Shown: piece by piece, positions 22,813-37,399 of the stretch
How positions within the stretch are numbered: position 1 is the first letter of the stretch
How the letters are laid out: every line of letters begins with the position of its first letter
Assembly (NCBI GenBank): GCA_963823555.1
Contig: CAWGMA010000004.1
Coordinates: forward strand, 512,001-576,000
DNA: 64,000 nt
From: Candidatus Eiseniibacteriota bacterium
GTDB taxonomy: Bacteria > Eisenbacteria > RBG-16-71-46 > CAVPCR01
Reading direction: 5' to 3'
The notes under the pieces: model-generated
What the model saw: only the letters and a program-made list of their open reading frames with translations
What the model was told of the DNA's origin: nothing
Database searches by the model: none
Made by a program: the position numbers and the translations under genes

Positions 22813-22851
22813 TCGCCACCGCCCGGATGCGCGGGCGCGCTATCCCGGACC

Positions 22852-24117
22852 TCAGTCCCGGGTCTCGGCGAGGACCTCGTTGTAGACGGCCTCGATGCGT
22901 TCGACCCTGGCATCCCAGCCGAACGCCCGCGCGGCCGCGGCGAGCGCGGCTCGATCCCAGGTGCGCCCCAGCGCGATCCTGAGTCCCTGGGCGAGCTCCG
23001 CGTCCCCCTGGGGCGGGACCAGGATCCCGGTCACTCCATCCACCACGCACTCGGGGACCCCACCCACTCGGCTGGCCACGACGGGTGTGCCGGCTGCCAT
23101 GGCCTCGGGAATCACGAGCGGCAACCCCTCGCTCGAACTCGGCAGAACAAGGAGATCGGCGGCGGCGAGCCAGAGGGGCATCTCAGCATGCGGGCGTTGC
23201 CCGGCGAAGAGGACCCGAGGGATGAGGCCGAGGTCGCGAACCAGCGCGCGGAGCCGCTCCTCTTCCGGACCGGCCCCGGCAAGGACCAGCGTCACGACGG
23301 GCATCGCGGGTTCCGCAGAAAGCTGCGCCAGGGCGCGAATGAGGCGATCGACCTGCTTCACCGGCAGGAAGTCGCCGGCGAACACGACGAGCGGGGTCGG
23401 TTCGGCGACGACCGGCTTCCCGAGGAGGCTCGCGCTCTCGGCTCGGCACGCGGCCCGATCGCGCGGGGTGAAGCGTGCGGTATCGACGCCGTTGGCGATC
23501 ACCTCGAGCCGCTGTGGCGGCGCCCCGGCGGCCATGAGTCGGTCTCGAATGTCACGGCTCACACAGAGCACGCGGGCGGCGGAGCGGACGGCAGCCAGCG
23601 TCTGGGCGCGGTAGCGGATGCCGTCGGGCCGGTCGAGGCGGGCAACGTCGCTGCCGTGGGCGGTGATGATCGCCGGGCGGCGCAGCGCACGCGCCGCCGC
23701 CACCGTTGCCCCGCCGTGCGGGTAGAGCCAATGACCGTGCAGGAGGTCGGGCCGGCCGCTCCGGTGGGCGGTGGCCAGGATGGCTCGTACCATGAGGAGC
23801 GGGTCCAGCAGCGGCCACAGTCCAGGGAGGTGGAGTTGCCGGGGGCGAAAGATGCGGAGTTCGTGCTCGCCGATCCGCTCGTGTTCCTCGGCCGGGGCTC
23901 TGGGCACCTCGGCGCGCTTCTCCGCATAGTGCTGGAGCGGCGGGTACAGACGATAGGGAGCGACCACCGAAACCTGGTGATGTGCGGCCAGGCGCTCGAC
24001 CTGCGCCCGCACCGCCACCTGCATGCCGCCCCGGGTGAGCGCCGGAGCGGAGAACGTGGGCGTGCAGACGAGGAGGCGAAGCGAATCAGGCTGACCGGAA
24101 TCGCGATCTCGGACCAG
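22852..24117 (-). CDS. Glycosyltransferase family 4
   Basis: HGHW, TAHGSD, NGVD, K, and EGLPLVIPEAMAAG (EX7E). The frame extends upstream of ATG 24024 to a CTG at 24117 that follows GGAGG. Confidence 0.88.
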   Translation of the reverse strand: MVRDRDSGQPDSLRLLVCTPTFSAPALTRGGMQVAVRAQVERLAAHHQVSVVAPYRLYPPLQHYAEKRAEVPRAPAEEHERIGEHELRIFRPRQLHLPGLWPLLDPLLMVRAILATAHRSGRPDLLHGHWLYPHGGATVAAARALRRPAIITAHGSDVARLDRPDGIRYRAQTLAAVRSAARVLCVSRDIRDRLMAAGAPPQRLEVIANGVDTARFTPRDRAACRAESASLLGKPVVAEPTPLVVFAGDFLPVKQVDRLIRALAQLSAEPAMPVVTLVLAGAGPEEERLRALVRDLGLIPRVLFAGQRPHAEMPLWLAAADLLVLPSSSEGLPLVIPEAMAAGTPVVASRVGGVPECVVDGVTGILVPPQGDAELAQGLRIALGRTWDRAALAAAARAFGWDARVERIEAVYNEVLAETRD

Positions 24118-24285
24118 GGCTCATCCTCCGGACGATCATCGTCCGCTCACGGATCGGGCCCGCGTGCTGCGGGGCCGCCACAGAAAACACAGCAAGCCGG
24201 GGCATGGTAGCAGAAGCAGAGCGGGCGGCGCGTGATAGGATGGGCGGGCGCCGCCTCGAGGCGCGAGGGACAAGAGAACGGAGCG

Positions 24286-25290
24286 ATGGCAACGATCCTG
24301 ATCACCGGAGCAAGCGGATTCGCCGGCGGACATCTGGCCTCGGCCCTTGCCGCCATGGAGGGCCCGGGGGGGCGTCCGGTGCTCGTCGGCCTGGGCCAGG
24401 GTCCGCTCGATCCGGCGCTCGAACCGCTCTTCGCTGCCTACCACGACGGGGATGTGACCGATTTCGATTTCTTGCGCCGCGTCATCGGCTCGGCGCGCCC
24501 GGACCGCGTCTATCATCTCGCCGCGATCACGTTTGGTCGCCCCGCCGGCCCCACCGACCAGCGCTTTCTCGATGTCAACGTCCAGGGGACCCGTCTTCTC
24601 TTCGAGGCGCTGCTGGCGGCCGAGATCACGCCCCGGGTTCATATCGCTGGTTCGAGCGCGGTGTATGGCGCGGCAGTGGCGGACCCGATCACCGAGGACA
24701 CCCCGCTCAAACCGCAAACGCCCTACGCGGCGAGCAAGGCGGCGCAGGAGATGATCGCGCTGGCCTATGGCAGGGGAGAGGGGTTTCCGGTCATCGTGAC
24801 CCGTGCCTTCAACCACACCGGTCCCGGCGAGCACCCGCACTTCGCCGCTTCCACCTTTGCGCGCCAGATCGCCGCGGCGGAGGCCGGAACCGGGGATCCT
24901 TGCATCCGTGTCGGCAATCTGGCGGCCTATCGCGACTTCACCGACGTTCGCGATATCGTCCGCGGCTATGTCACGGCGCTCGAGCACGGGGCGGCAGGAG
25001 AGTGCTACAACGTCTGCTCCGGAACGGCGACGCGAATCGAGGATGTTCTCGACATGCTGCGCCGCAAGGCTCGCGTCCCGGTCGAGGTGGCTGTCGACCC
25101 GGATCGCCTCGCGCCGGCCGACGTTCCCTTCCAGCGGGGAAGCCACGCGAAGCTCGCCGATGCGACGGGCTGGCGGCCCACAATCCCGCTCGCCACGACA
25201 CTCGCCGATCTCCTAGACTACTGGCGGCGGCGCTCGGTGGCGAGTCGGCCCGGTCCCGCCTCGCCGGTGAGCGACGCACCCAGGGGGTGA
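24286..25290 (+). CDS. Extended SDR, GDP-4-keto-6-deoxy-D-mannose reductase (Rmd)-like
   Basis: TGASGFAG, YAASK, RAFNHTGP and VGNL...RDFTDVRD. Confidence 0.8.
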   Translation: MATILITGASGFAGGHLASALAAMEGPGGRPVLVGLGQGPLDPALEPLFAAYHDGDVTDFDFLRRVIGSARPDRVYHLAAITFGRPAGPTDQRFLDVNVQGTRLLFEALLAAEITPRVHIAGSSAVYGAAVADPITEDTPLKPQTPYAASKAAQEMIALAYGRGEGFPVIVTRAFNHTGPGEHPHFAASTFARQIAAAEAGTGDPCIRVGNLAAYRDFTDVRDIVRGYVTALEHGAAGECYNVCSGTATRIEDVLDMLRRKARVPVEVAVDPDRLAPADVPFQRGSHAKLADATGWRPTIPLATTLADLLDYWRRRSVASRPGPASPVSDAPRG

Positions 25291-25292
25291 GC

Positions 25293-26285
25293 ATGATGGA
25301 ATGGACAGATCGTCCGGTCTTGGTAACCGGCGCCGGTGGTTTCATCGGCAGCCATCTGGTCGAGGAACTGGTCCGCGCCAAGGCGCGGGTTCGTGCCTTC
25401 GTGCGCTACAACTCGCGCGGCTCGCGCGGGTTCCTCGATGATTTCGCGCCCCAGGTGCTGGAGCGGATCGAGGTCGTGTCCGGCGATCTGCGCGATGCCA
25501 ACGCGGTGGCCAACGCCATGCGGGAGGTGAGCACCGTCTTCCACCTCGGTGCCCTGATCGCCATTCCCTACTCGTATCGCAACCCGCGCGAGGTGGTGGA
25601 GACCAACGTCATCGGCACGCTCAATGTGCTGGCCGCCGCCCGTGATCTCGGCACGGAGCGCATCGTTCACACCTCCACCAGCGAGGTCTACGGCACGGCG
25701 CAGTACGTGCCGATCGACGAGAAGCATCCGCTGGTCGGCCAGTCGCCCTATTCCGCGTCCAAGATCGCGGCGGATCAGGTGGCGGAGAGCTTCCATCGCT
25801 CCTATGGTCTGCCGGTCGTGACCGTGCGCCCGTTCAACACCTATGGGCCGCGGCAATCGGCGCGGGCGGTGATCCCCTCGATCATGATCCAGGCCATCAC
25901 GCAGGACCGGATCTTCCTCGGGGCGACCCACCCGACCCGTGATCTGGTCTTCGTCAAGGACACGGTGCGCGGCTTCATGGCGCTGGCGGCATGTGATGCC
26001 GCCATAGGACAGGTGGTGAACCTGGGGAGCGGACGTGAAGTCTCGGTGCGCGAGCTCGCCGAGCGCATCGTGGCGCTCGTCGGCCGTCCGGTCGAACTGG
26101 TCTTCGATGCCACCCGTCTCCGCCCGGAGCGGAGCGAGGTGGACCGGCTCCTCGCCGACAACCGGCGAGCCAAGGAGCTGAGTGGGTGGGAGCCGGTGGT
26201 GAACCTGGAGGATGGGCTCCGCGCCACCATGGACTGGATCGGCGAGCACGCCGCGCTCTATCGCCCGAGCGAGTACGCTGTCTAG
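25293..26285 (+). CDS. NAD-dependent sugar-nucleotide 4,6-dehydratase, LegB-like
   Basis: TGAGGFIG, HLGALIAIPYSY, TSTSEVYG, YSASK and RPFNTYGPRQSARAVIP. Confidence 0.85.
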   Translation: MMEWTDRPVLVTGAGGFIGSHLVEELVRAKARVRAFVRYNSRGSRGFLDDFAPQVLERIEVVSGDLRDANAVANAMREVSTVFHLGALIAIPYSYRNPREVVETNVIGTLNVLAAARDLGTERIVHTSTSEVYGTAQYVPIDEKHPLVGQSPYSASKIAADQVAESFHRSYGLPVVTVRPFNTYGPRQSARAVIPSIMIQAITQDRIFLGATHPTRDLVFVKDTVRGFMALAACDAAIGQVVNLGSGREVSVRELAERIVALVGRPVELVFDATRLRPERSEVDRLLADNRRAKELSGWEPVVNLEDGLRATMDWIGEHAALYRPSEYAV

Positions 26286-26374
26286 CGCGGCGGCGAAGAC
26301 CCGTGGCCGAGGAAGGAACGAAGGCGAGGCTCGCCGAGGGACAGATCGGCGGCCGGCATGCCGATAGGGTGACC

Positions 26375-27073
26375 ATGCACGCGGTGATCATGGCCGGCGG
26401 GCTGGGGACGCGACTCCGCCCGCTGACCTACGCCATCCCCAAGCCCCTGCTCCCGATCGGCGATCGGCCGATTCTCGAGATCCTGCTCACCCAGCTGGCC
26501 CGCGGGGGGTTCCGCCAGGTCTTCATCTCCACGGGATACAAGGGGGATCTCATCAAATCCTACTTCGGGGATGGACATCGCTTCGGTCTGGTCCTGCGCT
26601 ATGTGGAGGAAAAGGAGCCGCTGGGCACCGCCGGAGCGCTTGGCCTCGTCCGTGACGAGCTCACGCAACCGTTCCTCATGGTGAACGGTGACATCCTCAC
26701 GCGGTTCGACTTCGGCGCCTTCATCGCCCGCCATGCTGAGAGCGGTGCCGAGCTCACGGCGGCTGCGGTGCGTCACGAGATCACGATCCCCTATGGAGTG
26801 ATCAGGAGCAACGGCGAGACCATCGCCGAGGTGGTCGAGAAGCCGACCGAGACCCGGCTCGTGCTGGGCGGCATCTACGCCATGTCCCCGCCGGCCCTCC
26901 GCCACCTGCCGCCGGCTGGTGAGAGAGTGGACGTCCCCGAGCTCATCGGGCGCGCCATCCGGGGTGGTGGGAAGGTCCTCTACCAACCGATCGATGCCTT
27001 CTGGATGGATGTCGCCAAGATGGACGACTTCGAGCGGGCGCGGCAGGAGCTGGCCACCTGGGATGACGTGTAG
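26375..27073 (+). CDS. Sugar-phosphate nucleotidyltransferase
   Basis: AGGLGTRLRPLT..PKPLLP, EPLGTAG, NGD and EKP. Confidence 0.9.
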   Translation: MHAVIMAGGLGTRLRPLTYAIPKPLLPIGDRPILEILLTQLARGGFRQVFISTGYKGDLIKSYFGDGHRFGLVLRYVEEKEPLGTAGALGLVRDELTQPFLMVNGDILTRFDFGAFIARHAESGAELTAAAVRHEITIPYGVIRSNGETIAEVVEKPTETRLVLGGIYAMSPPALRHLPPAGERVDVPELIGRAIRGGGKVLYQPIDAFWMDVAKMDDFERARQELATWDDV

Positions 27074-27107
27074 CCGCCGCTAGCTCGGGCGCCGGCCGGG
27101 GAATTCC

Positions 27108-28304
27108 ATGCACGTCCTGTTTCTCGCCGAGGACTACACACCGCTTGCGAGTGCGCAGGGTGGTGTGCGCGTGAGCCTGGCTCAGCAGGCAGAGGGACTC
27201 GCGCGTGAGATCGAGGTGACGGTGCTCTCACCGCGGCGCCTCTTTCCCCCGCTCGGTCGCTACCGCGCCACGGGCGTGCCGCAGAAGCCACCGTCCGGCG
27301 AGGCTGCAGAGGATCTGGCGGCAAGTCGCGTGCGCATCCTGCGCCCCCGCATCCTCCATGTGCCGATCCTGTGGCCGATCACCGAGCCCTTGCAGCTCCT
27401 CGCTGCCGGCGCCCAGGCGCTCCGCGGCCCGGCGCGCGGGGCCCACATCGTGCACGGTCATCGCGCTTTTCCCATGGGTCTCGTCGCCGTTCTCCTCGGA
27501 CGTCTGTTTCAGCGGCCGAGCGTGGTCACGGTCTACGGCACCGAGGTCAACGTCGAGGCGGACTCCTCGCATCGGGTTCTGCGCCGCTTCGTGCGCGCCG
27601 GCCTCAGGGCCGACCGCTTGATCGCCGTGAGCCGATCCCTCGCCGAGCGCGCGCCGGCCATCGGCGTCCCTGGGTCCCGCATCCGTACGGTGCCGAGCGG
27701 AGTCGATCTCGTGCGGTTCGCTCCGGGAGATCGCGCTCGCGCCCGCCGGGAGCTCGGGCTCCCCGCCGATCGCTTCATCTTTCTCTCGATGAACCTGTTC
27801 GATCCCGTGAAGGGGCACGCGATCCTCATCGCGGCCATGAGCGAGCTCGCTCGGCGCCACCCGGGGCGGGCCTTCCTCGCCATGACCGGGGATGGTCCCG
27901 AGCGACCGCGGATTGCGGCCGAGGCGCGCGCGCTCGGGATCGAGAGCGATGTCCGTTTCGCCGGTCTCCGTCCCTATGGCGAGCTTCCGCTCTGGGTGAG
28001 CGCGGCCGATGCGCTCGTCCTCCCCAGCCTCAATGAGGGCATGCCGCTCACCGTGCTCGAGGGCTTTGCCGCCGGGAAGCCGGTCGTCGGCTCGTCGATC
28101 GGTGGCATTCCCGAGGTGGCGCCCGACGAGCGCTACGGGATCCTCGTGCCCCCAGGCGATCCTCGAGCCCTCGCGGCGGCCCTGGGCGCGGCCATCGACC
28201 GGCCCTGGGATTCGGGCGTCATCCGCGCCCGGGCCCAGTCCTTCGCGTGGCCGGCCGTCATCGAGCGGATCCGCGAGGTCTACTCCGAGCTCCTGCCGGG
28301 CTGA
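27108..28304 (+). CDS. Glycosyltransferase family 4
   Basis: HGH, SGVD, KGH and EGMPLTVLE (EX7E); similar in layout to 22852..24117. Confidence 0.9.
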   Translation: MHVLFLAEDYTPLASAQGGVRVSLAQQAEGLAREIEVTVLSPRRLFPPLGRYRATGVPQKPPSGEAAEDLAASRVRILRPRILHVPILWPITEPLQLLAAGAQALRGPARGAHIVHGHRAFPMGLVAVLLGRLFQRPSVVTVYGTEVNVEADSSHRVLRRFVRAGLRADRLIAVSRSLAERAPAIGVPGSRIRTVPSGVDLVRFAPGDRARARRELGLPADRFIFLSMNLFDPVKGHAILIAAMSELARRHPGRAFLAMTGDGPERPRIAAEARALGIESDVRFAGLRPYGELPLWVSAADALVLPSLNEGMPLTVLEGFAAGKPVVGSSIGGIPEVAPDERYGILVPPGDPRALAAALGAAIDRPWDSGVIRARAQSFAWPAVIERIREVYSELLPG

Positions 28305-28531: not shown

Positions 28532-29044
28532 ATGCGGAAGTTCGTTCCCGTTCTGCTCGCGCTCGCCGTCATGGCTTGGGCGCCATCCGCCCTGGCCCAG
28601 AGCACCGCGAGCGCCGACATCACGGCGCGGGCCACCGTCCTCGGCCCGATCACCGTCACCAATCAGGCGGACCTCGAATTCGGCAACGTGATTCCCGGCG
28701 TCGCGAAGTCCGTTGCGATCAGCGGCACCACGTCCGGCCGCTGGCTCGTCGCGGGCAACGCCGGCGCCGAGGTGAATCTCGACTTCACGGCGCTGCCGAA
28801 CAACCTGACCGGTCCGGCCACGATGTCGATCACGTACGCCGCCAACGATGCCGGCCACAACGTGACCAACAACGCCGCCGGGGCCGTGCCCTTCGATCCG
28901 GCCGGGACCGCGCTGGCGAACATCGGAAATGCTCCGGCGGAGCTCTACGTCTGGATCGGCGGCACGGTGAACCCGGTCGCGGGACAGGCGGCGGGTCTCT
29001 ACACCGGGACCATCACCCTGCAGGCGGCCTACACCGGCAACTAG
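28532..29044 (+). CDS. DUF4402-type secreted pilin-like protein 1 (candidate major subunit)
   Basis: Signal peptide ...PSALA|Q, then ADITARATVL, DLEFGNV, FDP, VWIGGTV and AGLYTGTITL..AYTGN. Confidence 0.8.
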   Translation: MRKFVPVLLALAVMAWAPSALAQSTASADITARATVLGPITVTNQADLEFGNVIPGVAKSVAISGTTSGRWLVAGNAGAEVNLDFTALPNNLTGPATMSITYAANDAGHNVTNNAAGAVPFDPAGTALANIGNAPAELYVWIGGTVNPVAGQAAGLYTGTITLQAAYTGN

Positions 29045-29078
29045 CTCGACTGCGGACCCCTGTTGCCACGGAGGGACG

Positions 29079-29594
29079 GTGAGGAAGGGGAGCGGATCAT
29101 GGTCGCCGGCGATCCTCGTGATCGTCTCGGCGCTCGTGCTGCCAGCGATGGTCGGACGCGCGGAGCCGGAGGCGGATGCACCCGGCTCCGCCGCGCCGCC
29201 GCCGCAGGGTCGCCAGCCCCTTGACTTCGGAGACGTGGTGGCGGGGATCGAGCTGAGCGTGAGCCGGCTCGATGGGCGCCGCGCCGGATCGTGGAAGCTC
29301 TTCGGTCGAGAGGATCAGGAGGTGCTCCTGACCTTCAACCTGCCGGCGGCACTCGCCGGTCCGCGCGGGGCGGCGTTGCCGATCCGGTTCGGCCGGGAGG
29401 ACGGCGGGTTCACGACCGAGCACCGGCCCGACCAGGCGCGGGGCTTCGATCCGCAGGTGCCGTATCTCGGCCGGCTGGGTCGCGGTGGTCATGCCTACGT
29501 GTTCCTGGGCGGCACCGTGAGTCCGCCGCTCGGGCAGCGTGCCGGAGCATATCAAGGCACGGTGACGCTCACCGTCGCCTTCACGGCGAATTGA
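29079..29594 (+). CDS. DUF4402-type pilin-like protein 2
   Basis: Signal peptide; LDFGDV, FDP, VFLGGTV and AGAYQGTVTLTVAFTAN; clear paralog of protein 1. Confidence 0.78.
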   Translation: MRKGSGSWSPAILVIVSALVLPAMVGRAEPEADAPGSAAPPPQGRQPLDFGDVVAGIELSVSRLDGRRAGSWKLFGREDQEVLLTFNLPAALAGPRGAALPIRFGREDGGFTTEHRPDQARGFDPQVPYLGRLGRGGHAYVFLGGTVSPPLGQRAGAYQGTVTLTVAFTAN

Positions 29595-29695
29595 CAGTTC
29601 TGTGATCGCGGTCCACCGGACCGGCGATGCGGAAGGGCCGGATGGGAATCGGAAGGAAGGATAGACGGATGGATCCGAGGAATGAAACGAAGGGA

Positions 29696-30526
29696 ATGCC
29701 CACCAAGCGGCTCGCATCCCTGCTTCTGGCGGTCCTGGCCCTCTGGGCCGGCACGGCGGGAGCGGTCGTCGTCGCGCCGCATGCCCTCTTCATCGATCAC
29801 CGCACGCGCTCCGGCGTGCTCTACGTGCACAACCCGGGTGATGTGCCGGAGGAGGTCACCGTCGATCTCGAGTACGGCTACCCGGTGTCGGATGGCGAGG
29901 GCGGGGTGAAGATCGAACTCATCCCCGACCCGCCGGCTGATGCTCCATCGGCCGCCGGCTGGGTCCGCGCCCTCCCGGCGCGCACGGTCGTGGCTCCCGG
30001 GGCCAGGCAGGCGATCCGTTTCCTCGCCCAGCCCCCGGCCGGGCTCGCCGACGGCGAGTACTGGAGCCGCGTCATCGTCACCGCGCGCGGGGGGCAGCCG
30101 CCCGTCGCGGCGGCCGGCAACGAGGCGGTGCAGGTCGGCCTCACCCTCGAGATGCGCACCATCACCTCGCTGACGTATCGCAAGGGCAAGGTGACTACCG
30201 GCGTCCAGCTCGACGGCTTCACCGCACAGCTGGGTGGTGACACCTTGACGACCGACACCCGCCTCTCGCGCGCGGGAGAGGGCGCCTTCCTCGGCACGCT
30301 GGAGTTCACGCTGACGGATCCGGCCGGCGCCATCGTCGGCAAGTGGAAGAACGCCGTCGCCGTCTACGAGGATCTCTACCGCCGCCTCGAGTTTCCGGTG
30401 GGGGCGCTGGCGCCCGGCCGCTATGTCGTCGGGCTCCGGGTGTCCACGGCGCGCGACGACATTCCCGAAGCCCATGTCCTGCCGGCGCCGCCGGTCGAGA
30501 CCACCGTGGCCGTGGACGTGCCCTGA
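29696..30526 (+). CDS. PapD-like periplasmic pilus chaperone
   Basis: Signal peptide AGA|VVVAP; LYVHNPG and W...P....APGARQAIRF....P.GL.DGEYWSR, followed by a second Ig-like domain. Confidence 0.75.
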   Translation: MPTKRLASLLLAVLALWAGTAGAVVVAPHALFIDHRTRSGVLYVHNPGDVPEEVTVDLEYGYPVSDGEGGVKIELIPDPPADAPSAAGWVRALPARTVVAPGARQAIRFLAQPPAGLADGEYWSRVIVTARGGQPPVAAAGNEAVQVGLTLEMRTITSLTYRKGKVTTGVQLDGFTAQLGGDTLTTDTRLSRAGEGAFLGTLEFTLTDPAGAIVGKWKNAVAVYEDLYRRLEFPVGALAPGRYVVGLRVSTARDDIPEAHVLPAPPVETTVAVDVP

Positions 30527-30563
30527 TTCCCAGCGCAGAGGGCGCTCGAGGAACGCTTGAACG

Positions 30564-31118
30564 ATGAAGAGCATGGCGACAGAAGCGCAGTGGAGAGGAC
30601 GGGCCGCCCGGGGCGTCATGCTGCTCGCCGGGCTCGCTCTCTTCCAGGCCTTGCTCCCGACTTCAGCTCTCGCGCAGTCATCGATCACCGCGAGCGCCGT
30701 CGTCGTCGGGGGCAATCTCGACATCGCCCGCGAGCGGGATCTCGATTTCGGCGATGTGATCCGCGGGGTGCCGGTGACGATCGCCATCCGTGACAACAAC
30801 GCCGGGCGCTTCCGCATCACCGGCAGCCCGGGCGCCGATGTCTCGCTCAACTTCCTCCTGCCCACGCTCCTCGCCTCCGGTCCCAACACCATGCCCATCA
30901 GCTTCGGGCCGAGCTCGGCAGGTCACTACCCGTTCAACGTGCCCCGCTTCGCGACCCTCTTCGATCCGCGGGTCCCGGCGGCGGCCCAGCTGCGCAACCA
31001 GGGTCCCACCGGGTACCTGTTCGTCTGGCTGGGGGGCACGGTGTCGCCGTCGGCCTTGCAGGCGCCGGGCATCTACACCGGGAACATCACCCTGGTCACC
31101 TCCTACACCGGAAGCTAG
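30564..31118 (+). CDS. DUF4402-type pilin-like protein 3
   Basis: Signal peptide ...TSALA|Q; SSITASAVV, DLDFGDV, FDP, VWLGGTV and PGIYTGNITLVTSYTGS. Confidence 0.78.
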   Translation: MKSMATEAQWRGRAARGVMLLAGLALFQALLPTSALAQSSITASAVVVGGNLDIARERDLDFGDVIRGVPVTIAIRDNNAGRFRITGSPGADVSLNFLLPTLLASGPNTMPISFGPSSAGHYPFNVPRFATLFDPRVPAAAQLRNQGPTGYLFVWLGGTVSPSALQAPGIYTGNITLVTSYTGS

Positions 31119-31151
31119 AGAGGGCCGTCCTCGTTGCGAGGAGGCATCGGG

Positions 31152-33779
31152 ATGGCAGGGAACGCTCGTAGCACGACGGCGCCGGCGGCCCGCATCGAGG
31201 CTGCCGTTCGCGCTGCCGGTCTCGCGGCTCTCGTGCTCGTGCTCCTCGTCCCATGCCCGACGCGCGCCGGCGATGACGACATCGTCATCGAGCTCCATGC
31301 CGGGCGGCTCGCCCGGCAGACCCTGCTCGCGCGCACCGCAGGCGGCATGGTGCTCGTCCCGGCCCGGCCGCTCTTCGAGATGATCGAGGTGCGCGCCAGC
31401 GTCGACTCGACCGGCCATCTCACGGCGGTCCGGGAGCCGAAGGGCATCCCCATCGAGGTCGACTTCACCCGGCAGTCGGCCCGTTCAGGAAATGACGTCT
31501 TCACGCAAGGATCGGCTCCGATGGCCTGGGCCGGAGGAGAGCTCTACCTGGGAACGCCCCTCATCGAGCACCTGCTCGATCTGAAGGTGGTCGTGGACTG
31601 GGCGGAGCTGGCCGTCATTCTGGATCCGGTCGATGATCTACCCCTGGGCCGTCGCCTCGCTCGCGAGCGGGCCCGCGCCGCGCGCCGGGGCGGGAGCGAC
31701 GATCCTCAGCCGGACCGCCTGCTCGGACCGGGCCCGGAGGCCGTTTCCGGCGCCGCCCTCGACTGGGGTCTCTTCATTCCCGACTTCGCCCTGCCCCAGG
31801 CCTCGAGCTACGAGCTTCGCTTCGGCACCGGTCTCGCCGGCGGCGCCTTCGATCTTCGCCACCGGGGCACCGCCGGCGGGAGAGCCGAGCACCCGATTGC
31901 CGCCTCCTGGGTTCGCGCCTGGCCGGAGGGATGGATCCCCCGCCAGCTCCGCCTCGGCTGGGTGGCCTCGACCGGGCCGCACGCCCGGCTCTTCCGCGGC
32001 ATCGCGGCTTCGACTGCGCCCTACTCGCGGCCTGCGACCTTCGGCGAGGCCGTCGTGCGCGGCTACCTCGGTCCAGGCTGGGAGATCGAGCTCCATCGCA
32101 ACGGGGAACTCGTTGATTTCACCCTCACCGATGTCGCCGGCTACTACGAGATCACGGCCCCCGTTGACTACGGAACGAACCCGGTGGACATCCGCGCCTA
32201 TGGGCCCAACGGGGAGGTGCGCGAGCTCACGCGCGCGATTCCGATCGCCGCCGAGCGCCTCCCGGCCGGGGCGATCGAGGCCGAGGCGAGTCTGGGCGCC
32301 TGCGACGGTCCTGAATGCCGTGGTCTCGCCAACGTCGACGCCCGGATCGGCGTCCATGAAGACTGGACCCTGAGGGGGGGGACCGATCTCTACCTGCGCG
32401 ACACGGGTGGCACACCGCTCGTCCATCCCTACCTGACGGCGAGCGGCGTCATCCAGGATGCCTGGCTCCTCCATGCCGATGCCGTGGGCGGCGCCTATGG
32501 CGCGGTCGGCGTCGGCTACGAGCCCACGCCCGATCTCCGGGCTTCCGGACGGCATGAAGTGTTCGCCACGCGGGTCGCGGATCCCATTCTGACCACGACC
32601 GGACAGCGCGCGCGCACGCTCGTCACGGCCTTCTACCGTCCGGATCCGCGTCGGCGTTCGCTCTACTTGACGCTCGGCGCGCAGCGTGATCGCCTCGCCG
32701 TTGACGTGCAGGATCGTCTTGCGCTCGGTCTCTCCGGGCAGGTCGAGAACGTGCGCCTGAATCTCGAGGGACGGGAAGAGAGACTCCGTGCCGGAAGCGC
32801 AGTGGCCAGCGCCCACCTGATCGGGGTGACGGCCTCGACCGCGCTCCGCTGGCGCCGGCTGCCGATCGCGCGCGGGCTCTATGTGCGCGGGCAGCTCGAG
32901 TGGGAGCTGGGCCGAGGTGCGCTCGAGCGAGCCGGGCTCGTGCTCGGGAAGAACGTGACCCCGTTCTCCCGTGTGGAGCTCGTCGCCGGCTGGTCCCATT
33001 TCGCCGGCACGCAGGTGAGCTGCACCATCTCCGCGCTCCGGCCGGGCCTCCATACCAGCGCCCAGGTGACCCGGGGCTTGAGCGGTGCCGTGACCACCGG
33101 GGCGTTCGCCGAAGGCGCCCTCCTCTGGAACGAAGCGGCGGAGCGCGTCGAGGTCTCCAGCTATCGCACGATCGGTCGCGGCGGCGTGAGCGGACTCGTC
33201 TTCCTCGACGAGAACGCCAGCGGCGGGATGGACCTCGGGGAGGAACCCCTGCCCGGAGTCCGCGTCACGGTGGGTTCTCATGCCGCGACCACCGATGAGG
33301 CCGGCCGCTACACGGTGTGGGATCTCGGACCCTTCGAGGACGCCGAGGTCACGATCGATCCCGAGTCGTTGCCGAGTCCATTCCTGGTGCCGACCGTGGC
33401 TTTCGCGCAGGTGGCGATCGAGCCCAACGGCTTCCGCGAGGTGAATCTCCCGGTGGTCATGGGCGCCGAGGCGTCGGGCCGCGTCAGCCGCGAGGGATCG
33501 GCCGGGGTGGCCGGCGTCGGCGGCGTGCGGGTCATCCTCACGCACCTCGGGACCGGCCGCCGCCATGAGGCGGTGACGTTCCACGATGGCGAGTTCTACG
33601 CGCTCGGTCTGCTTCCCGGCGACTACACCCTCGGCCTGGCTCCCGACACGCTCGAGCTCCTCGGGCTGCGCATCGATGGACCGGCCATCCGCTTCAACGT
33701 ACCGGCCGATCCCGATGCCCGCGCTCCCGCGGTGGACGTCCTCCTGGTCCCGGTGTCGGCGCCCCCCCGGGGCCGCTAG
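31152..33779 (+). CDS. Usher-like outer-membrane protein with C-terminal carboxypeptidase-regulatory/SdrD-B-like domains
   Basis: Signal peptide; plug-like IELHRNGEL...GYY...YGTN...AYGPNGE; many amphipathic beta strands; VSGLVFLDEN..G..D.GE.PLPGV and DGEFY..GL.PGDY. About 875 aa. Confidence 0.72.
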   Translation: MAGNARSTTAPAARIEAAVRAAGLAALVLVLLVPCPTRAGDDDIVIELHAGRLARQTLLARTAGGMVLVPARPLFEMIEVRASVDSTGHLTAVREPKGIPIEVDFTRQSARSGNDVFTQGSAPMAWAGGELYLGTPLIEHLLDLKVVVDWAELAVILDPVDDLPLGRRLARERARAARRGGSDDPQPDRLLGPGPEAVSGAALDWGLFIPDFALPQASSYELRFGTGLAGGAFDLRHRGTAGGRAEHPIAASWVRAWPEGWIPRQLRLGWVASTGPHARLFRGIAASTAPYSRPATFGEAVVRGYLGPGWEIELHRNGELVDFTLTDVAGYYEITAPVDYGTNPVDIRAYGPNGEVRELTRAIPIAAERLPAGAIEAEASLGACDGPECRGLANVDARIGVHEDWTLRGGTDLYLRDTGGTPLVHPYLTASGVIQDAWLLHADAVGGAYGAVGVGYEPTPDLRASGRHEVFATRVADPILTTTGQRARTLVTAFYRPDPRRRSLYLTLGAQRDRLAVDVQDRLALGLSGQVENVRLNLEGREERLRAGSAVASAHLIGVTASTALRWRRLPIARGLYVRGQLEWELGRGALERAGLVLGKNVTPFSRVELVAGWSHFAGTQVSCTISALRPGLHTSAQVTRGLSGAVTTGAFAEGALLWNEAAERVEVSSYRTIGRGGVSGLVFLDENASGGMDLGEEPLPGVRVTVGSHAATTDEAGRYTVWDLGPFEDAEVTIDPESLPSPFLVPTVAFAQVAIEPNGFREVNLPVVMGAEASGRVSREGSAGVAGVGGVRVILTHLGTGRRHEAVTFHDGEFYALGLLPGDYTLGLAPDTLELLGLRIDGPAIRFNVPADPDARAPAVDVLLVPVSAPPRGR

Positions 33780-34081
33780 TTCGCGACGAATTCCACGAGC
33801 ATCACGGCATCGGGCGCCCGGGGATCGTCGGGGATCCCGGGGTCGAGCCGCGTGACCCGGGCCAGTCCCTCTCGCGTCCAGTCCGGCGCGAAATTCCCGC
33901 TCTGGGCGAGGAGGGACGACATGACGTCGAGCGCGGCGGCGCTCGGTCCGGCATCGAGGACGGTGGCCGACACGGTGATCGAGGCGGCGGCGGATCCTGC
34001 GCTTGGTTCGGGGATCGCGGCCGCGACCACGCCCGCGGTGAAGACGGCGGCCGCGATGAGCAGGGGGACGATGCGGAGCAT
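33776..34081 (-). CDS. 101-aa secreted protein with pilin-like N- and C-terminal motifs
   Basis: Signal peptide, ASITVSATVL and C-terminal VEFVAN. Its stop overlaps the usher stop (CTAG). Confidence 0.68.
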   Translation of the reverse strand: MLRIVPLLIAAAVFTAGVVAAAIPEPSAGSAAASITVSATVLDAGPSAAALDVMSSLLAQSGNFAPDWTREGLARVTRLDPGIPDDPRAPDAVMLVEFVAN

Positions 34082-34149: not shown

Positions 34150-34277
34150 GGCGCGACCGGCTAACTTGTGGCCCGGCAATCAGGTGGAGCGATCATTCCG
34201 AGGCATTGCAAGTCGCGGGCCGTGCCGGCGCGTCCCCTTGCATCCTGCAGCGGTGCTGCGACTCCCCCGATGGCGGC

Positions 34278-36191
34278 CTACGGCTTCAGGTGGTGGGCGA
34301 AGAACTCGGTGATCTTCGTGTAGCAGGTCACCTTGTTCTTGTACTTGAGGACATCGTGACCCTCATCCTCGAAGACGAGATAGTCGACCGTCTTCCCCAG
34401 CGCGCGTAGCCGTTCCACCACATCTCGCGACTCGCGCTCCACGACTCGCGGGTCGTTCTGGCCCTGGATGACGAGGAGCGGACAGGTGATCCGCTCGATG
34501 TAGGTCGCCGGAGAGCGCTCGACGAGAAAATCCCTGTCCACGGCGGGATCGCCGACCGCGATGGCGAAGTAGGGCTTCCAGGTCTCGGGTATGCGGCTCA
34601 TGAAGGTCAACAGATCGTACGGACCGAACATATCGACCGCGGCGGCCCACAGCTCCGGGTGGCGGGCGGCCAGGGTCAAGGTCATGTAGCCGCCGTACGA
34701 GCGTCCGATCACCGCGGCGCGCTTCACATCGAGGCGCGGATCGCGGGGCAGGACCTCGGTCATGGCATGCACGTGATCGAGGCGGTCCTGGCCCCCCCAG
34801 TCGTGATCGACCTCTTTCATGTACGAAAGCCCGTAACCGGTCGAGCCGCGGGCGTTGGGAACGAAGACCGCGAATCCGTGCAGGGAGAGGAACTGGATGA
34901 GCGGCATCGAGAACCAGGCGAAGTCAGGTCGCTCCTGCCCCTGCGGGCCGCCGTGGACGTAGTAGACGACAGGTCGAGATCCCTTGTAGCCGAGGTCGGG
35001 CGCGGGCAGGTAGAGACGGGCCGAGATGCGAAGTCCATCGAACGAGCGGTAGGAGGCGTCCTCGCCGCGCGCCAGCCAGGCGGCAGGGATCCCGAGCACG
35101 CGCTCGCGCGTGTGCTGCACGTGGACATGCGACTCCCGCCTCTCGAGCGTGTGGATCTGGGTCGGGGTCGTGGCCGTCGAGAAGGACAGGGTGTGCGTGT
35201 CGGTGTCCGCGTCGTAGCTGGCCGACTCGATCACGCCATGGGTCAGGGGGGCCATCCCGCAGATCACGCGGTCGAGCGTCATGCTGCGATCGGCCACGTC
35301 GAACCGACCCTCGTACATCCAGGAGCAGCCGTCGATGTTGTAGGTGACGGCGAAGCGATCGGCGTCGAGATGTTCGATTCCCGTCAGCTCGCCCTCCCCG
35401 GTATGCACGATGCCGGACACCGAGACCGGTTGCACGACTTCCGGATCGGCAAGATCCAGGTAATCGATGCCGTAGCGGTCGGAGTGGATGGCGGAAGCCA
35501 GGAGCAGTCCGCGGTCGCCGATGTACTCCGCCGCGGCAATCCCGGAGAGCGGGTAGTCGTGCCCCGGCTTGCGCTTCTCGAGTGGAGTGCCGTACAGGAG
35601 ATCGCGCCTGCCCTCGCCGAGCTCCGCTCGCCACTCGTAGAGCGTGACGTCCCCGGCGGTGTAGCCATCGCCGAGGAGGACGCGCGTATGATCGGCGTTG
35701 TGCGCGATCGGTACCGAACCCCAGCGACTCTCGCCGAGGCGATCCAGCTTTCCGGTCGGCAGATGGCCGCGGAAGGCGCGGTTCACCGCCTCGCGGCGCG
35801 ATTCCGCCGACAGATAGAGGATGCCACGCCTCGGATCCACGCGCGTCATGCTGACGCGGTCGTTGGCCAGCTGAGCGCCGAAGGCCGGCTCCGGGAAGCC
35901 CCCGCCGATCGGGATCACCATCGGCTGATAGTTCTCATCCCCGTCCCGATCGATCATGACGATGATCTTCTCGAGCCGGGGGAAAACGTGGAAGGGGTGG
36001 CCTGTCATCAGGTGCGGGTTCTGGAGTGCGATCGATGGCGGTAGGAGCGGCTCCGGGAAGCTGCCCCCGGAACGGGCATCCATCACGTAGAGGCTCAGCC
36101 GGCCGCTGAGATCGCTCAGGAAGTAGATGCGGCCCCCGGCGATTCGCGGGGCGAGGACCAGACGCGCGGAGAGCAAGGATTCGATGCGCAT
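34278..36191 (-). CDS. S9 family peptidase (prolyl oligopeptidase / acylaminoacyl peptidase)
   Basis: VHGGP, NARGSTGYG, GRSYGG nucleophile, G.NDPRV and DEGH. Confidence 0.93.
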   Translation of the reverse strand: MRIESLLSARLVLAPRIAGGRIYFLSDLSGRLSLYVMDARSGGSFPEPLLPPSIALQNPHLMTGHPFHVFPRLEKIIVMIDRDGDENYQPMVIPIGGGFPEPAFGAQLANDRVSMTRVDPRRGILYLSAESRREAVNRAFRGHLPTGKLDRLGESRWGSVPIAHNADHTRVLLGDGYTAGDVTLYEWRAELGEGRRDLLYGTPLEKRKPGHDYPLSGIAAAEYIGDRGLLLASAIHSDRYGIDYLDLADPEVVQPVSVSGIVHTGEGELTGIEHLDADRFAVTYNIDGCSWMYEGRFDVADRSMTLDRVICGMAPLTHGVIESASYDADTDTHTLSFSTATTPTQIHTLERRESHVHVQHTRERVLGIPAAWLARGEDASYRSFDGLRISARLYLPAPDLGYKGSRPVVYYVHGGPQGQERPDFAWFSMPLIQFLSLHGFAVFVPNARGSTGYGLSYMKEVDHDWGGQDRLDHVHAMTEVLPRDPRLDVKRAAVIGRSYGGYMTLTLAARHPELWAAAVDMFGPYDLLTFMSRIPETWKPYFAIAVGDPAVDRDFLVERSPATYIERITCPLLVIQGQNDPRVVERESRDVVERLRALGKTVDYLVFEDEGHDVLKYKNKVTCYTKITEFFAHHLKP

Positions 36192-36242: not shown

Positions 36243-37178
36243 TTACACCACGTCGGATGGGAGACTGATCGCGGCAGGGCGCATCACCGGAGTGTAGGCG
36301 CCCCGCACCATGTAGAGCGAGAGATTCGTGGCCCGGAAACCCATGGCCATGGCCTGCGCCACGACATCGGCCTGGGATGCCAGCAAGTGGACGAGGAAGA
36401 TGTTGGCCTCCTGTCCCAGGCGCTCGCCAAGCCGGGCGAGCAGCTTGCCGAGCAGATCGGCCGACTCGGCGCCGCCGGGGCCGATCATCGCCAGCTGGCC
36501 CTCGATGCGGCCGAAGAGGTACCCGCGCACGGTGTCGCCGTCGAGGGCTGCGAGGCCGATGCCGCCGCCGGCGACCAGGGAGCGAAAGTCGCGCTCGCGC
36601 GACCCACCGAAGTATGCGGCATCGAAGCGAGCCACGCTTGTCACGTCCGCCGGCCCGATCTCGCGCACCGGCGCCGGGGCGATCGCCTCGAGCATCCCAG
36701 GGCCTTTGAGTGCGCCGAGGGCGACGAGGCGCAGTCCGTAGTCGCGCGGGACGTAGCCTCGCTTGAGGGGAATGGTGAAGGCTCGCATGTTGAAGGCATC
36801 GACGAAGAGGCGGGTGGATGAGCAGCGTGCGGCGCGGTCGCTGAGGGCCTCGAAGAGGCGAGTGCCAATTCCCGCCGCCTGGTCGGGAGGATCGACGACG
36901 ACCGGGCCGAGCGATGCCACCTCGTCGCGCAGGTGGAGGAAGCCCGCGCCCACGATCTTGTCGCCGCGCCGGGCCACGGCGGCCTCGCCGCGATCGAGCT
37001 CGAGATAGAGGCGAGCCAGTCGCTCGCCCTCCTTCTCGTCGGTGATCGGTTCCGGTAGTCCATGCATGCGGAAAGCGTTGCCGATGGCGCGGTAGATGAT
37101 GGCGCCGACCGGGGCCGTATCGGCAGCGGTCATCGGAGCCAGCTCGGGCCTATCGGCGGGCAAGACGTCGAAGTTCAT
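36243..37178 (-). CDS. GNAT family N-acetyltransferase (tandem GNAT)
   Basis: LGPVVVDPPDQAAGIGTRL acetyl-CoA motif, followed by a second degenerate GNAT domain. Confidence 0.82.
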   Translation of the reverse strand: MNFDVLPADRPELAPMTAADTAPVGAIIYRAIGNAFRMHGLPEPITDEKEGERLARLYLELDRGEAAVARRGDKIVGAGFLHLRDEVASLGPVVVDPPDQAAGIGTRLFEALSDRAARCSSTRLFVDAFNMRAFTIPLKRGYVPRDYGLRLVALGALKGPGMLEAIAPAPVREIGPADVTSVARFDAAYFGGSRERDFRSLVAGGGIGLAALDGDTVRGYLFGRIEGQLAMIGPGGAESADLLGKLLARLGERLGQEANIFLVHLLASQADVVAQAMAMGFRATNLSLYMVRGAYTPVMRPAAISLPSDVV

Positions 37179-37399
37179 CGTCCTTTCCTGTGACTTGATG
37201 ACTGCTGCGGCGACGAGGTCACCCCACCACCCCTTCGACGAGCGCGGCGAAGAACCGGGCCAGGTCATGGGAATAGGGCATCGGCATCGCGGAGCAGGTG
37301 CCGTAGCCCATCGACGTGCTGGTGGCGAGCCCTAACCACAGATCGTACTCGAGCCCGTGGAAGCGCCAGCGGGGGAGGAGGGAGTCTACTCCAGCGCGG

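Follow-up and report, generated by a model that had tools for sequence, protein, structure and literature searches.

Analysis of a 64,000-nucleotide stretch of DNA from a Candidatus Eiseniibacteriota bacterium (the whole of which is referred to below as the window) makes it reasonably likely that a locus within it assembles a chaperone-usher pilus, the fibre of which is predicted to be tipped by an armless pilin and capped at its base by a miniature subunit, here called the mini-subunit. A preliminary description of the interval 28532 to 34081 had listed five plus-strand genes in the order pilin 1, pilin 2, chaperone, pilin 3 and an 875-amino-acid (aa) protein, and had read them as a donor-strand fimbria that would give the family DUF4402 a function. 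The gene content and order were confirmed, and the functional proposal is supported by the pilin model, its fold matches, a predicted complex and the usher model. The interval is correct for the five genes, which end at 33779, but a sixth gene, which had gone undescribed, runs on the minus strand from a start codon at the last position of the interval, 34081. The sequence motifs quoted in the description are each present in all three pilins, these contain no cysteine, as had been stated, and the signal peptides proposed for all five products were accepted on inspection by eye. The claim of an alternating N-terminal strand holds for pilins 1 and 3 but not for pilin 2, which carries a Pro/Ala-rich stretch instead. 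Pilins 1 and 3 match the DUF4402 Pfam model (Table 1) and pilin 2 falls below its cut-off (E 0.005); the chaperone has no Pfam match, the 875-aa protein matches only CarboxypepD_reg and SdrD_B (residues 688-833), an NCBIfam scan gave nothing above cut-off, and the Usher and PapD_N models find no match in the whole genome, which is 92.5% complete and in which the three pilins of the window are the only ones of their kind.

The identity of the 875-aa protein was addressed with an AlphaFold2 (AF2) model built on 36 sequences (predicted local distance difference test, pLDDT, 84; predicted template-modelling score, pTM, 0.66), in which an N-terminal domain is followed by six long strands, a six-strand insertion, eighteen long strands and two C-terminal beta domains. 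Foldseek ranks FimD first (E 5.7e-25) and PapC next (E 6.6e-21), and in a VIA search residues 192-865 align on FimD 132-833 with Z 18.9 and a root-mean-square deviation (rmsd) of 9.4 over 540 residues, and residues 201-660 on the PapC pore 146-636 with Z 18.8 and rmsd 4.9, as compared to Z 14.0 for the best other barrel. Atlas language-model features gave scores of 0.93 for PF00577 and 0.92 for TcfC ushers. As modelled, the protein is an outer-membrane usher, and the barrel of about 24 strands with a plug, on which the preliminary description had staked its reading, is represented by 6 + 18 strands and the inserted six-strand domain. The SdrD-B/carboxypeptidase-like Ig domains, which had been considered unusual, turned out not to be additions: the FimD alignment takes in the barrel, the plug and both C-terminal domains (CTDs), and since the model aligns through FimD residue 833 these domains occupy the place of the ordinary CTD1 and CTD2. 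The usher N-terminal domain lies outside the VIA-aligned range of FimD and PapC, matches Cu_amine_oxidN1 in 6 of 36 homologues and PapC_N in none of the 36, and may be a distinct chaperone-docking domain. In four of the relatives compared below (L019, L028, L056 and L066) the usher is divided between two open reading frames (ORFs), reflecting frameshifts or sequencing errors.

These results bear on the proposal that the locus specifies a secretion pore plus unrelated secreted Ig-like proteins, and no pilus at all. Profiles of the pilins, chaperone and usher did not retrieve pilus proteins in sequence searches of the PDB, nor did a search with the chaperone of Polaromonas, and together with the absence of Usher and PapD_N matches from the genome this accords with such a proposal. 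The barrel, plug and CTD architecture, the score of FimD and PapC relative to other barrels (Z 18.9 versus 14.0), the PapD_N matches among homologues of the chaperone and the donor-strand geometry predicted below all argue against it, and we regard it as scarcely credible.

Relatives of the locus were collected by scanning species-representative genomes with an alignment of the chaperone, that of the usher being too variable for a locus scan, and 378 of 400 pattern matches were confirmed. The 83 loci compared comprise the best 80 of these 378, a selection biased to Gemmatimonadota in which Eisenbacteria and Krumholzibacteria also occur, with two further relatives and the window added and duplicates (L001-L005, L086, L089) removed. 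The order pilin 1, pilin 2, chaperone, (pilin 3), usher is retained in 72 of the 83, most of the other 11 being cut by contig ends, and a pilin follows the chaperone, in the position of pilin 3, in 39.

The AF2 model of pilin 1, derived from 147 sequences, is a beta sandwich (pLDDT 97) whose first 17 residues are unpaired, and all but five of the 42 Foldseek matches listed for it are chains of chaperone-usher pilins; a wide VIA search gave CfaE (Z 7.9), an archaeal cannula (7.4), CsuA/B (7.3), PapG (7.2) and FimG (7.0). A complete, self-contained Ig domain, which the preliminary description had named as fatal to its proposal, was not seen in the pilin 1 model: its N-terminus is unpaired, and a donor strand is predicted to occupy the groove. 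The combination that characterizes subunits of the chaperone-usher pathway, an incomplete fold and a donor strand, is accordingly present in the models, with modest fold scores. A strict donor-strand motif ahead of LxFG was found in 75 of 77 pilin 1, 26 of 37 pilin 3 and just 1 of 79 pilin 2 orthologues, and a looser version of the motif in 75/77, 31/37 and 12/79, respectively (five unplaceable rows and one mis-called row were left out). Within the pilin 1 strand A34 and V36 are at least 90% conserved, and cysteine occurs in 4 of the 77 pilin-1 bodies. In a quick tree of the pilin bodies (137 columns) the three gene positions largely form separate groups, with 4 label changes as compared to a shuffled mean of 85, and this separation points to distinct roles for the three pilins. 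Pilin 1 is probably the shaft subunit and pilin 3 an optional adaptor or minor subunit.

Pilin 2 is very probably a single-domain tip that goes first in assembly. Pilin 2 and the shaft pilin are close paralogues (33-35% identity), and the signal peptide of most pilin-2 proteins leads straight into the first strand, the Pro/Ala-rich stretch lying between the two in that of the window. Because pilin 2 would accept a strand and could not donate one, it is expected at the distal end of the fibre. A single-domain tip subunit without an N-terminal extension is characteristic of AAF and Afa/Dr fimbriae, and it is the missing motif (1/79) from which we infer the same location here; in AAF the armless minor subunits AggB and AafB are described at the tip, where they accept a strand from the major subunit (PMC4169507). 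Among the 150 distant relatives listed, five proteins of 303-335 aa (P0199, P0204, P0209, P0237 and P0325) are natural fusions in which an armless domain is joined through an internal donor-like strand to a second pilin domain, with the strict motif present in 3 of the 5; their domain order agrees with the armless domain as the tip, and such tandem DUF4402 proteins are possible two-domain tips. The preliminary description was right that the operon lacks a two-domain tip adhesin, none being encoded in the window, and no recurring adhesin was found after the usher in the 61 loci with enough flanking DNA, 22 of which had a long co-oriented ORF at this position (N-termini judged by eye).

The sixth gene, the stop codon of which overlaps that of the usher by 4 nucleotides (CTAG), specifies the mini-subunit, a protein in which a signal peptide and a donor strand like the arm of a pilin precede a helix that is probably amphipathic, followed by a further strand and by a pilin-like last one. 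Its C-terminus, consisting of an aromatic residue, two further residues and Asn, resembles a pilin end, and both the terminal Asn and the donor motif are present in 33 of 34 family members; the last strand has alternating hydrophobic residues, with an aromatic at -4, and is conserved as strongly as the arm. The aligned mature part spans 61-92 residues and has a variable middle. No Pfam family corresponds to the mini-subunit, and its profile resembles that of the pilins over the arm alone (E 0.002, 15 columns). Of 67 loci with sufficient DNA upstream, 39 gave the family in an iterative profile search from which pilin, chaperone and usher ORFs were excluded to keep it from drifting into true pilins; these 39 include ten that served as seeds, a doubtful hit (L038) and two that are partial (L027 and L039, in both of which the gene looks broken, much as the ushers mentioned above). 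Among the 38 loci that lacked a profile hit, a pattern scan turned up one further likely member (L024), along with three spurious-looking ones. In every one of 40 loci the gene runs counter to the operon, lying divergently upstream of pilin 1 in 37 and downstream in 3, as in the window. Across 201 whole genomes four full-length hits were obtained, all adjoining the operon and one of them (G117) outside the sequences of the profile; four partial hits (E 0.002-0.007), all of them to long ORFs in genomes that lack the chaperone, were put down to chance. The proportion of non-synonymous differences (pN) is below that of synonymous ones (pS) in 53 of 53 gene pairs at 48% identity or above, a result favoured by the choice of similar pairs, and the pair formed by the window and L006 stands at the weak end (pN 0.37, pS 0.48); on these comparisons the mini-subunit is under purifying selection.

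A predicted complex of arm-deleted pilin 1 and the mini-subunit scored 0.93, as compared to 0.01 for the best of three controls, with runs agreeing in at least 89% of contacts and a partner pLDDT of at least 59; of the solved pairs 116 of 157 reach the mark applied to such complexes, as do 2 of 215 mismatched ones, rates that hold only roughly since alignments made for this analysis were used. The confident interface is composed wholly of mini-subunit residues A28-A44, which run antiparallel to the last strand of pilin 1, and the invariant A39 faces the invariant Y157 of pilin 1 in what is predicted to be canonical donor-strand geometry. The prediction supports binding of the mini-subunit arm in the groove of pilin 1 and, like the donor strands of PapH and FimI, this arm would complement the major pilin.

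By analogy with known systems, subunits of the DUF4402 pilus would almost certainly cross by the Sec route, be held by the chaperone and be linked up at the usher, where the N-terminal strand of each would enter the groove of its predecessor. Assembly would begin with pilin 2, continue optionally with pilin 3 and then with many copies of pilin 1, and growth would stop once the arm of the mini-subunit had been donated to the last pilin, as no groove would then be offered; the mini-subunit could not accept a further strand because it is without an Ig sandwich. If the chaperone were kept on the C-terminal strand of the mini-subunit, their complex would anchor the fibre in the manner put forward for FimI and PapH (PMC10673952). 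We hold with slightly better than even confidence that the mini-subunit is a terminator or anchor comparable to these two proteins. The function of the pilus is likely to be adhesion to surfaces or between cells in biofilms, again by analogy.

Two other roles for the mini-subunit in the same pilus were considered. It could be a periplasmic quality-control cap or regulator which stays outside the fibre and blocks the grooves of pilins that are free or stalled, or titrates away the chaperone: the gene is transcribed separately and against the operon in each of the 40 loci, as would suit independent control, the confident part of the model is limited to the arm, and the gene is missing from many operons. 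For a simple cap, however, a C-terminal strand that is conserved like the arm and mimics the pilin end gripped by a chaperone would be needless, and we find such a role rather unlikely. The mini-subunit could otherwise be a reduced in-line adaptor or flexible linker, donating and accepting on a body of a helix plus a hairpin, as its last and preceding strands amount to one side of an acceptor groove and larger subunits with a degenerate body are seen by eye as second genes in operons of Polaromonas and Novosphingobium. A mature part of 61-92 residues with a variable middle nevertheless offers too little for a two-sheet groove, and the likeness of its profile to pilins in the arm alone also tells against such a linker, which we take to be quite improbable.

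The chaperone is connected to the PapD-like proteins through intermediate sequences, as 24 of 117 homologues match PapD_N weakly and the chaperone profile finds those of Polaromonas (E 1e-23) and Novosphingobium (E 1e-17), both of which pass the PapD_N cut-off; the Polaromonas neighbour already carries the NCBI label 'fimbria/pilus periplasmic chaperone', and NCBI and JGI labels call some neighbours PapD-like chaperones. The window chaperone was compared with EcpB and with the criteria of PMC4654587. Its P103 aligns with the invariant proline of EcpB, Pro60, and V156, L158, L160 and M162 align with the P3-P0 donor residues of the EcpB G1 strand, so that by sequence bridging the proline and alternating G1 strand of a PapD-like chaperone are both present. 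In the same alignment (19% identity) L, M, T or V stands at the site of EcpB Ile117 (P0) and residues 70-80 form an insertion at the C1-D1 hairpin, and at alignment level the shift of the donor register to P0 and the extra C1-D1 hairpin of non-classical chaperones are therefore recognizable. The profile comparison with EcpB is weak (E 0.087), and the window chaperone contains no cysteine. The Arg89 site is occupied by Arg in EcpB and in 9 of 9 distant DUF4402 chaperones. Taken by its sequence, the chaperone looks non-classical and not like a clean member of either the archaic or the alternate class.

A number of points weigh against the proposed pilus and its terminator. The whole pilus reading rests on prediction, and the fold matches of pilin 1 are modest, with no Foldseek match at E ≤ 0.001; in the VIA comparison of models archaeal cannulae tie with pilins at Z 7.4, where the best Z is just 7.9. 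In the chaperones of the window clade the Arg89 anchor site is Trp in 117 of 117 sequences, an invariant Arg being found two residues on. The score of the complex may owe something to likeness to solved donor-strand complexes and tests the arm alone, the rest of the mini-subunit being of low confidence (pLDDT about 60), and the binding of the mini-subunit to the chaperone is putative. No mini-subunit was detected in 28 of the 67 loci, nor in any of 7 distant operons, so that the protein would not be essential everywhere, and its gene is read from the opposite strand in the 40 loci, unlike papH or fimI, which are not known to be transcribed in this way.

Table 1. Positions in the window of the genes of the DUF4402 locus and of the parts of their products discussed in the text.
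Feature	Position	Strand	Remarks
Pilin 1, DUF4402	28532..29044	+	170 aa; Pfam E 1.7e-9; likely major shaft subunit (first gene, has donor strand)
Pilin 1 N-terminal donor strand, Q23-L37	28598..28642	+	Alternating I30, A32, A34, V36
Pilin 2, DUF4402 body without donor strand	29079..29594	+	171 aa; likely single-domain tip subunit
Periplasmic chaperone, PapD-like, non-classical type	29669..30526	+	285 aa from database start; start may be 29696
Pilin 3, DUF4402 with donor strand	30564..31118	+	184 aa; Pfam E 2.5e-5; optional minor or adaptor subunit
Outer-membrane usher	31152..33779	+	875 aa; AF2 model, Foldseek, VIA, Atlas features
Usher N-terminal domain, residues 42-182	31275..31697	+	Folds confidently in model
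Usher barrel, residues 198-660	31743..33131	+	6 strands, plug, 18 strands in strand list of model
Usher plug domain, residues 299-364	32046..32243	+	Between barrel strands 6 and 7; taken as plug from FimD/PapC architecture
Two C-terminal Ig-like domains (SdrD_B / CarboxypepD_reg), equivalent to usher CTD1 and CTD2	33180..33752	+	Pfam; FimD alignment
Mini-subunit gene	33776..34081	-	101 aa, about 79 mature; candidate terminator/anchor
Mini-subunit donor strand, A28-A44 (I35, V37, A39, V41)	33950..34000	-	Predicted interface with pilin 1

Neither a sigma-70 promoter nor a convincing terminator was found in the region. When 250 bp upstream are scanned, 52 of 72 loci (for example L031, L059 and L077) have a sigma-54-type box, for which the pattern YGGYAY-N5-TTGC was used, at about 100 bp from the start of pilin 1, as compared to none on the antisense strand and 58 of 4193 background windows, these sites included; it is missing before pilin 1 of the window. 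A looser GG-N10-GC box is located at 34207-34222 (-), upstream of the mini-subunit gene, and likewise in the same-genus relative L006, and constitutes weak evidence that the gene may be under separate control. Directly upstream of the pilus genes, at about 22850-28304, is a surface-polysaccharide cluster that is partly co-oriented with them and contains GT4 glycosyltransferases (Pfam, 27108-28304) and, by eye, sugar epimerase-like and nucleotidyltransferase-like ORFs; the Novosphingobium operon is likewise preceded by sugar-nucleotide genes. Upstream of the mini-subunit gene and co-oriented with it are genes for an S9 peptidase (34278-36191, -) and a double GNAT acetyltransferase (36243-37268, -).

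The preliminary description had presented the locus as belonging to a probable non-proteobacterial lineage. A same-genus relative (G001, Candidatus Eisenbacteria) has the same operon and the chaperone profile matches 19 of 201 genomes of the phylum, but homologous operons are also carried on plasmids of Polaromonas and Novosphingobium, and on this evidence the DUF4402 pilus system is not confined to non-proteobacterial lineages. A further homologous operon, on a Deferribacter plasmid, is interrupted by an IS200/IS605 insertion element with tnpB that splits the chaperone gene (L092:7875-10575). The usher profile finds the Proteobacteria and Deferribacterota DUF4402 operons with E 7e-98 and 3e-85, and tblastn of the window chaperone against plasmids gave no matches. 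Among the 7 more distant operons five showed pilin, chaperone and usher only. The second genes of the Polaromonas (L091:7402-8022) and Novosphingobium (L093:7502-7936) operons encode proteins with an arm-like N-terminus, a pilin-like C-terminus and a body without a Pfam match; they are possible larger counterparts of the mini-subunit and gave no score with its profile. A 96-aa convergent ORF after the Novosphingobium usher was rejected as a mini-subunit. The pilin profile matches 5,142 clusters at 50% identity.

Taken together, it is tentatively suggested, at a likelihood we put a little short of even, that DUF4402 systems represent a separate and widespread chaperone-usher lineage, outside the classical, alternate and archaic classes alike, which uses one paralogous pilin family for shaft and tip and a minimal terminator consisting of a donor strand and a handle for the chaperone. 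The question of how growth ends and attachment is kept in non-classical pili is raised in PMC10104325 and bioRxiv 10.64898/2026.02.19.706768, and if our interpretation is true the mini-subunit would be the first terminator candidate put forward for such pili, with a structural solution unlike that of PapH and FimI; at 80 residues it is a directly testable candidate. The large unannotated family DUF4402 would gain a testable function, and because the standard usher and chaperone models miss the DUF4402 system, counts of pili in uncultured phyla of soil and sediment are likely too low. Single-domain caps are already known in other pili; the armless tip combined with the natural fusions suggests one possible origin of two-domain tip adhesins. 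No paper naming DUF4402 or PF14352 was found in full-text literature, from which most subscription journals were absent, and neither a description of a DUF4402 pilus system, as far as titles and the beginnings of abstracts reveal, nor a terminator without a pilin body was found in the literature consulted.

As far as models can test, the DUF4402 locus has the defining features of the chaperone-usher pathway, and its comparison with the known classes bears on the assignment to the alternate (CS1/CFA-I) class made in the preliminary description. A divergent member of this class, which includes ECP, would share the Cys-free pilins, the GxYxG before the last strand that is also seen in EcpA, the presence of CfaB and CfaE among the best fold matches, the correspondence of the chaperone G1 residues to EcpB P3-P0 and the TcfC score of 0.92 in Atlas. 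The assignment was not supported by closer comparison: CfaE, CsuA/B, PapG and FimG match the pilin fold to within 1 Z unit of one another, a tie across classes, the operon has no two-domain adhesin like CfaE or EcpD, and there is a weak leaning of the pilins to the archaic SCPU model, which 20 of 147 homologues match weakly (best E 7e-4), as compared to at most 1 of 147 for an alternate pilin model, no alternate pilin family being among the 25 families listed out of 42. The ushers compared, the phylogeny of which is the formal criterion of class, share 11-14% identity, a TcfC domain is found in 1 of 36 ushers (E 0.13) and is not convincing, the usher profile gives no alignment with EcpC (E 0.3), and the profile comparison with EcpA is weak (E 0.003). 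Membership of the alternate class is in our view very unlikely.

The archaic Csu pili of Acinetobacter baumannii and CupE pili of Pseudomonas aeruginosa have the same gene order of several pilins, a chaperone and an usher, and likeness to archaic pili extends to the weak SCPU similarity just described, to CsuA/B as the match of best rmsd among the top fold matches of pilin 1 (2.9 A over 111 residues), and, in the chaperone, to the insertion at the C1-D1 hairpin and the hydrophobic residue at P0. Unlike archaic pili, for which a conserved pilin disulfide is a class feature (PMC4654587, PMC10104325), the DUF4402 system has neither such a disulfide nor a two-domain tip adhesin comparable to CsuE or CupE6, and the window clade has Trp at the Arg89 position of archaic chaperones. 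The DUF4402 locus also carries a candidate terminator, whereas none is identified for archaic pili according to PMC10104325 and bioRxiv 10.64898/2026.02.19.706768. The AAF and Afa/Dr fimbriae resemble it in having a single-domain tip without an N-terminal extension (AggB, AafB and AfaD/DraD; PMC4169507), but are classical FGL systems with disulfide-bonded subunits, while the DUF4402 cap is closely paralogous to the shaft pilin and is accompanied by a chaperone of non-classical appearance. The DUF4402 (PF14352) operons of Proteobacteria and Deferribacterota are homologous in pilin, chaperone and usher; their chaperones keep the non-classical Arg, and the mini-subunit family was not detected in them. 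PapH of P pili and FimI of type 1 pili are, as the mini-subunit may be, low-copy accessory proteins with a donor strand which are proposed to be unable to accept a further strand (PMC10673952), but both are full pilin domains lacking the P5 pocket and are encoded in the operon, whereas the mini-subunit is without a pilin body and is encoded on the opposite strand.

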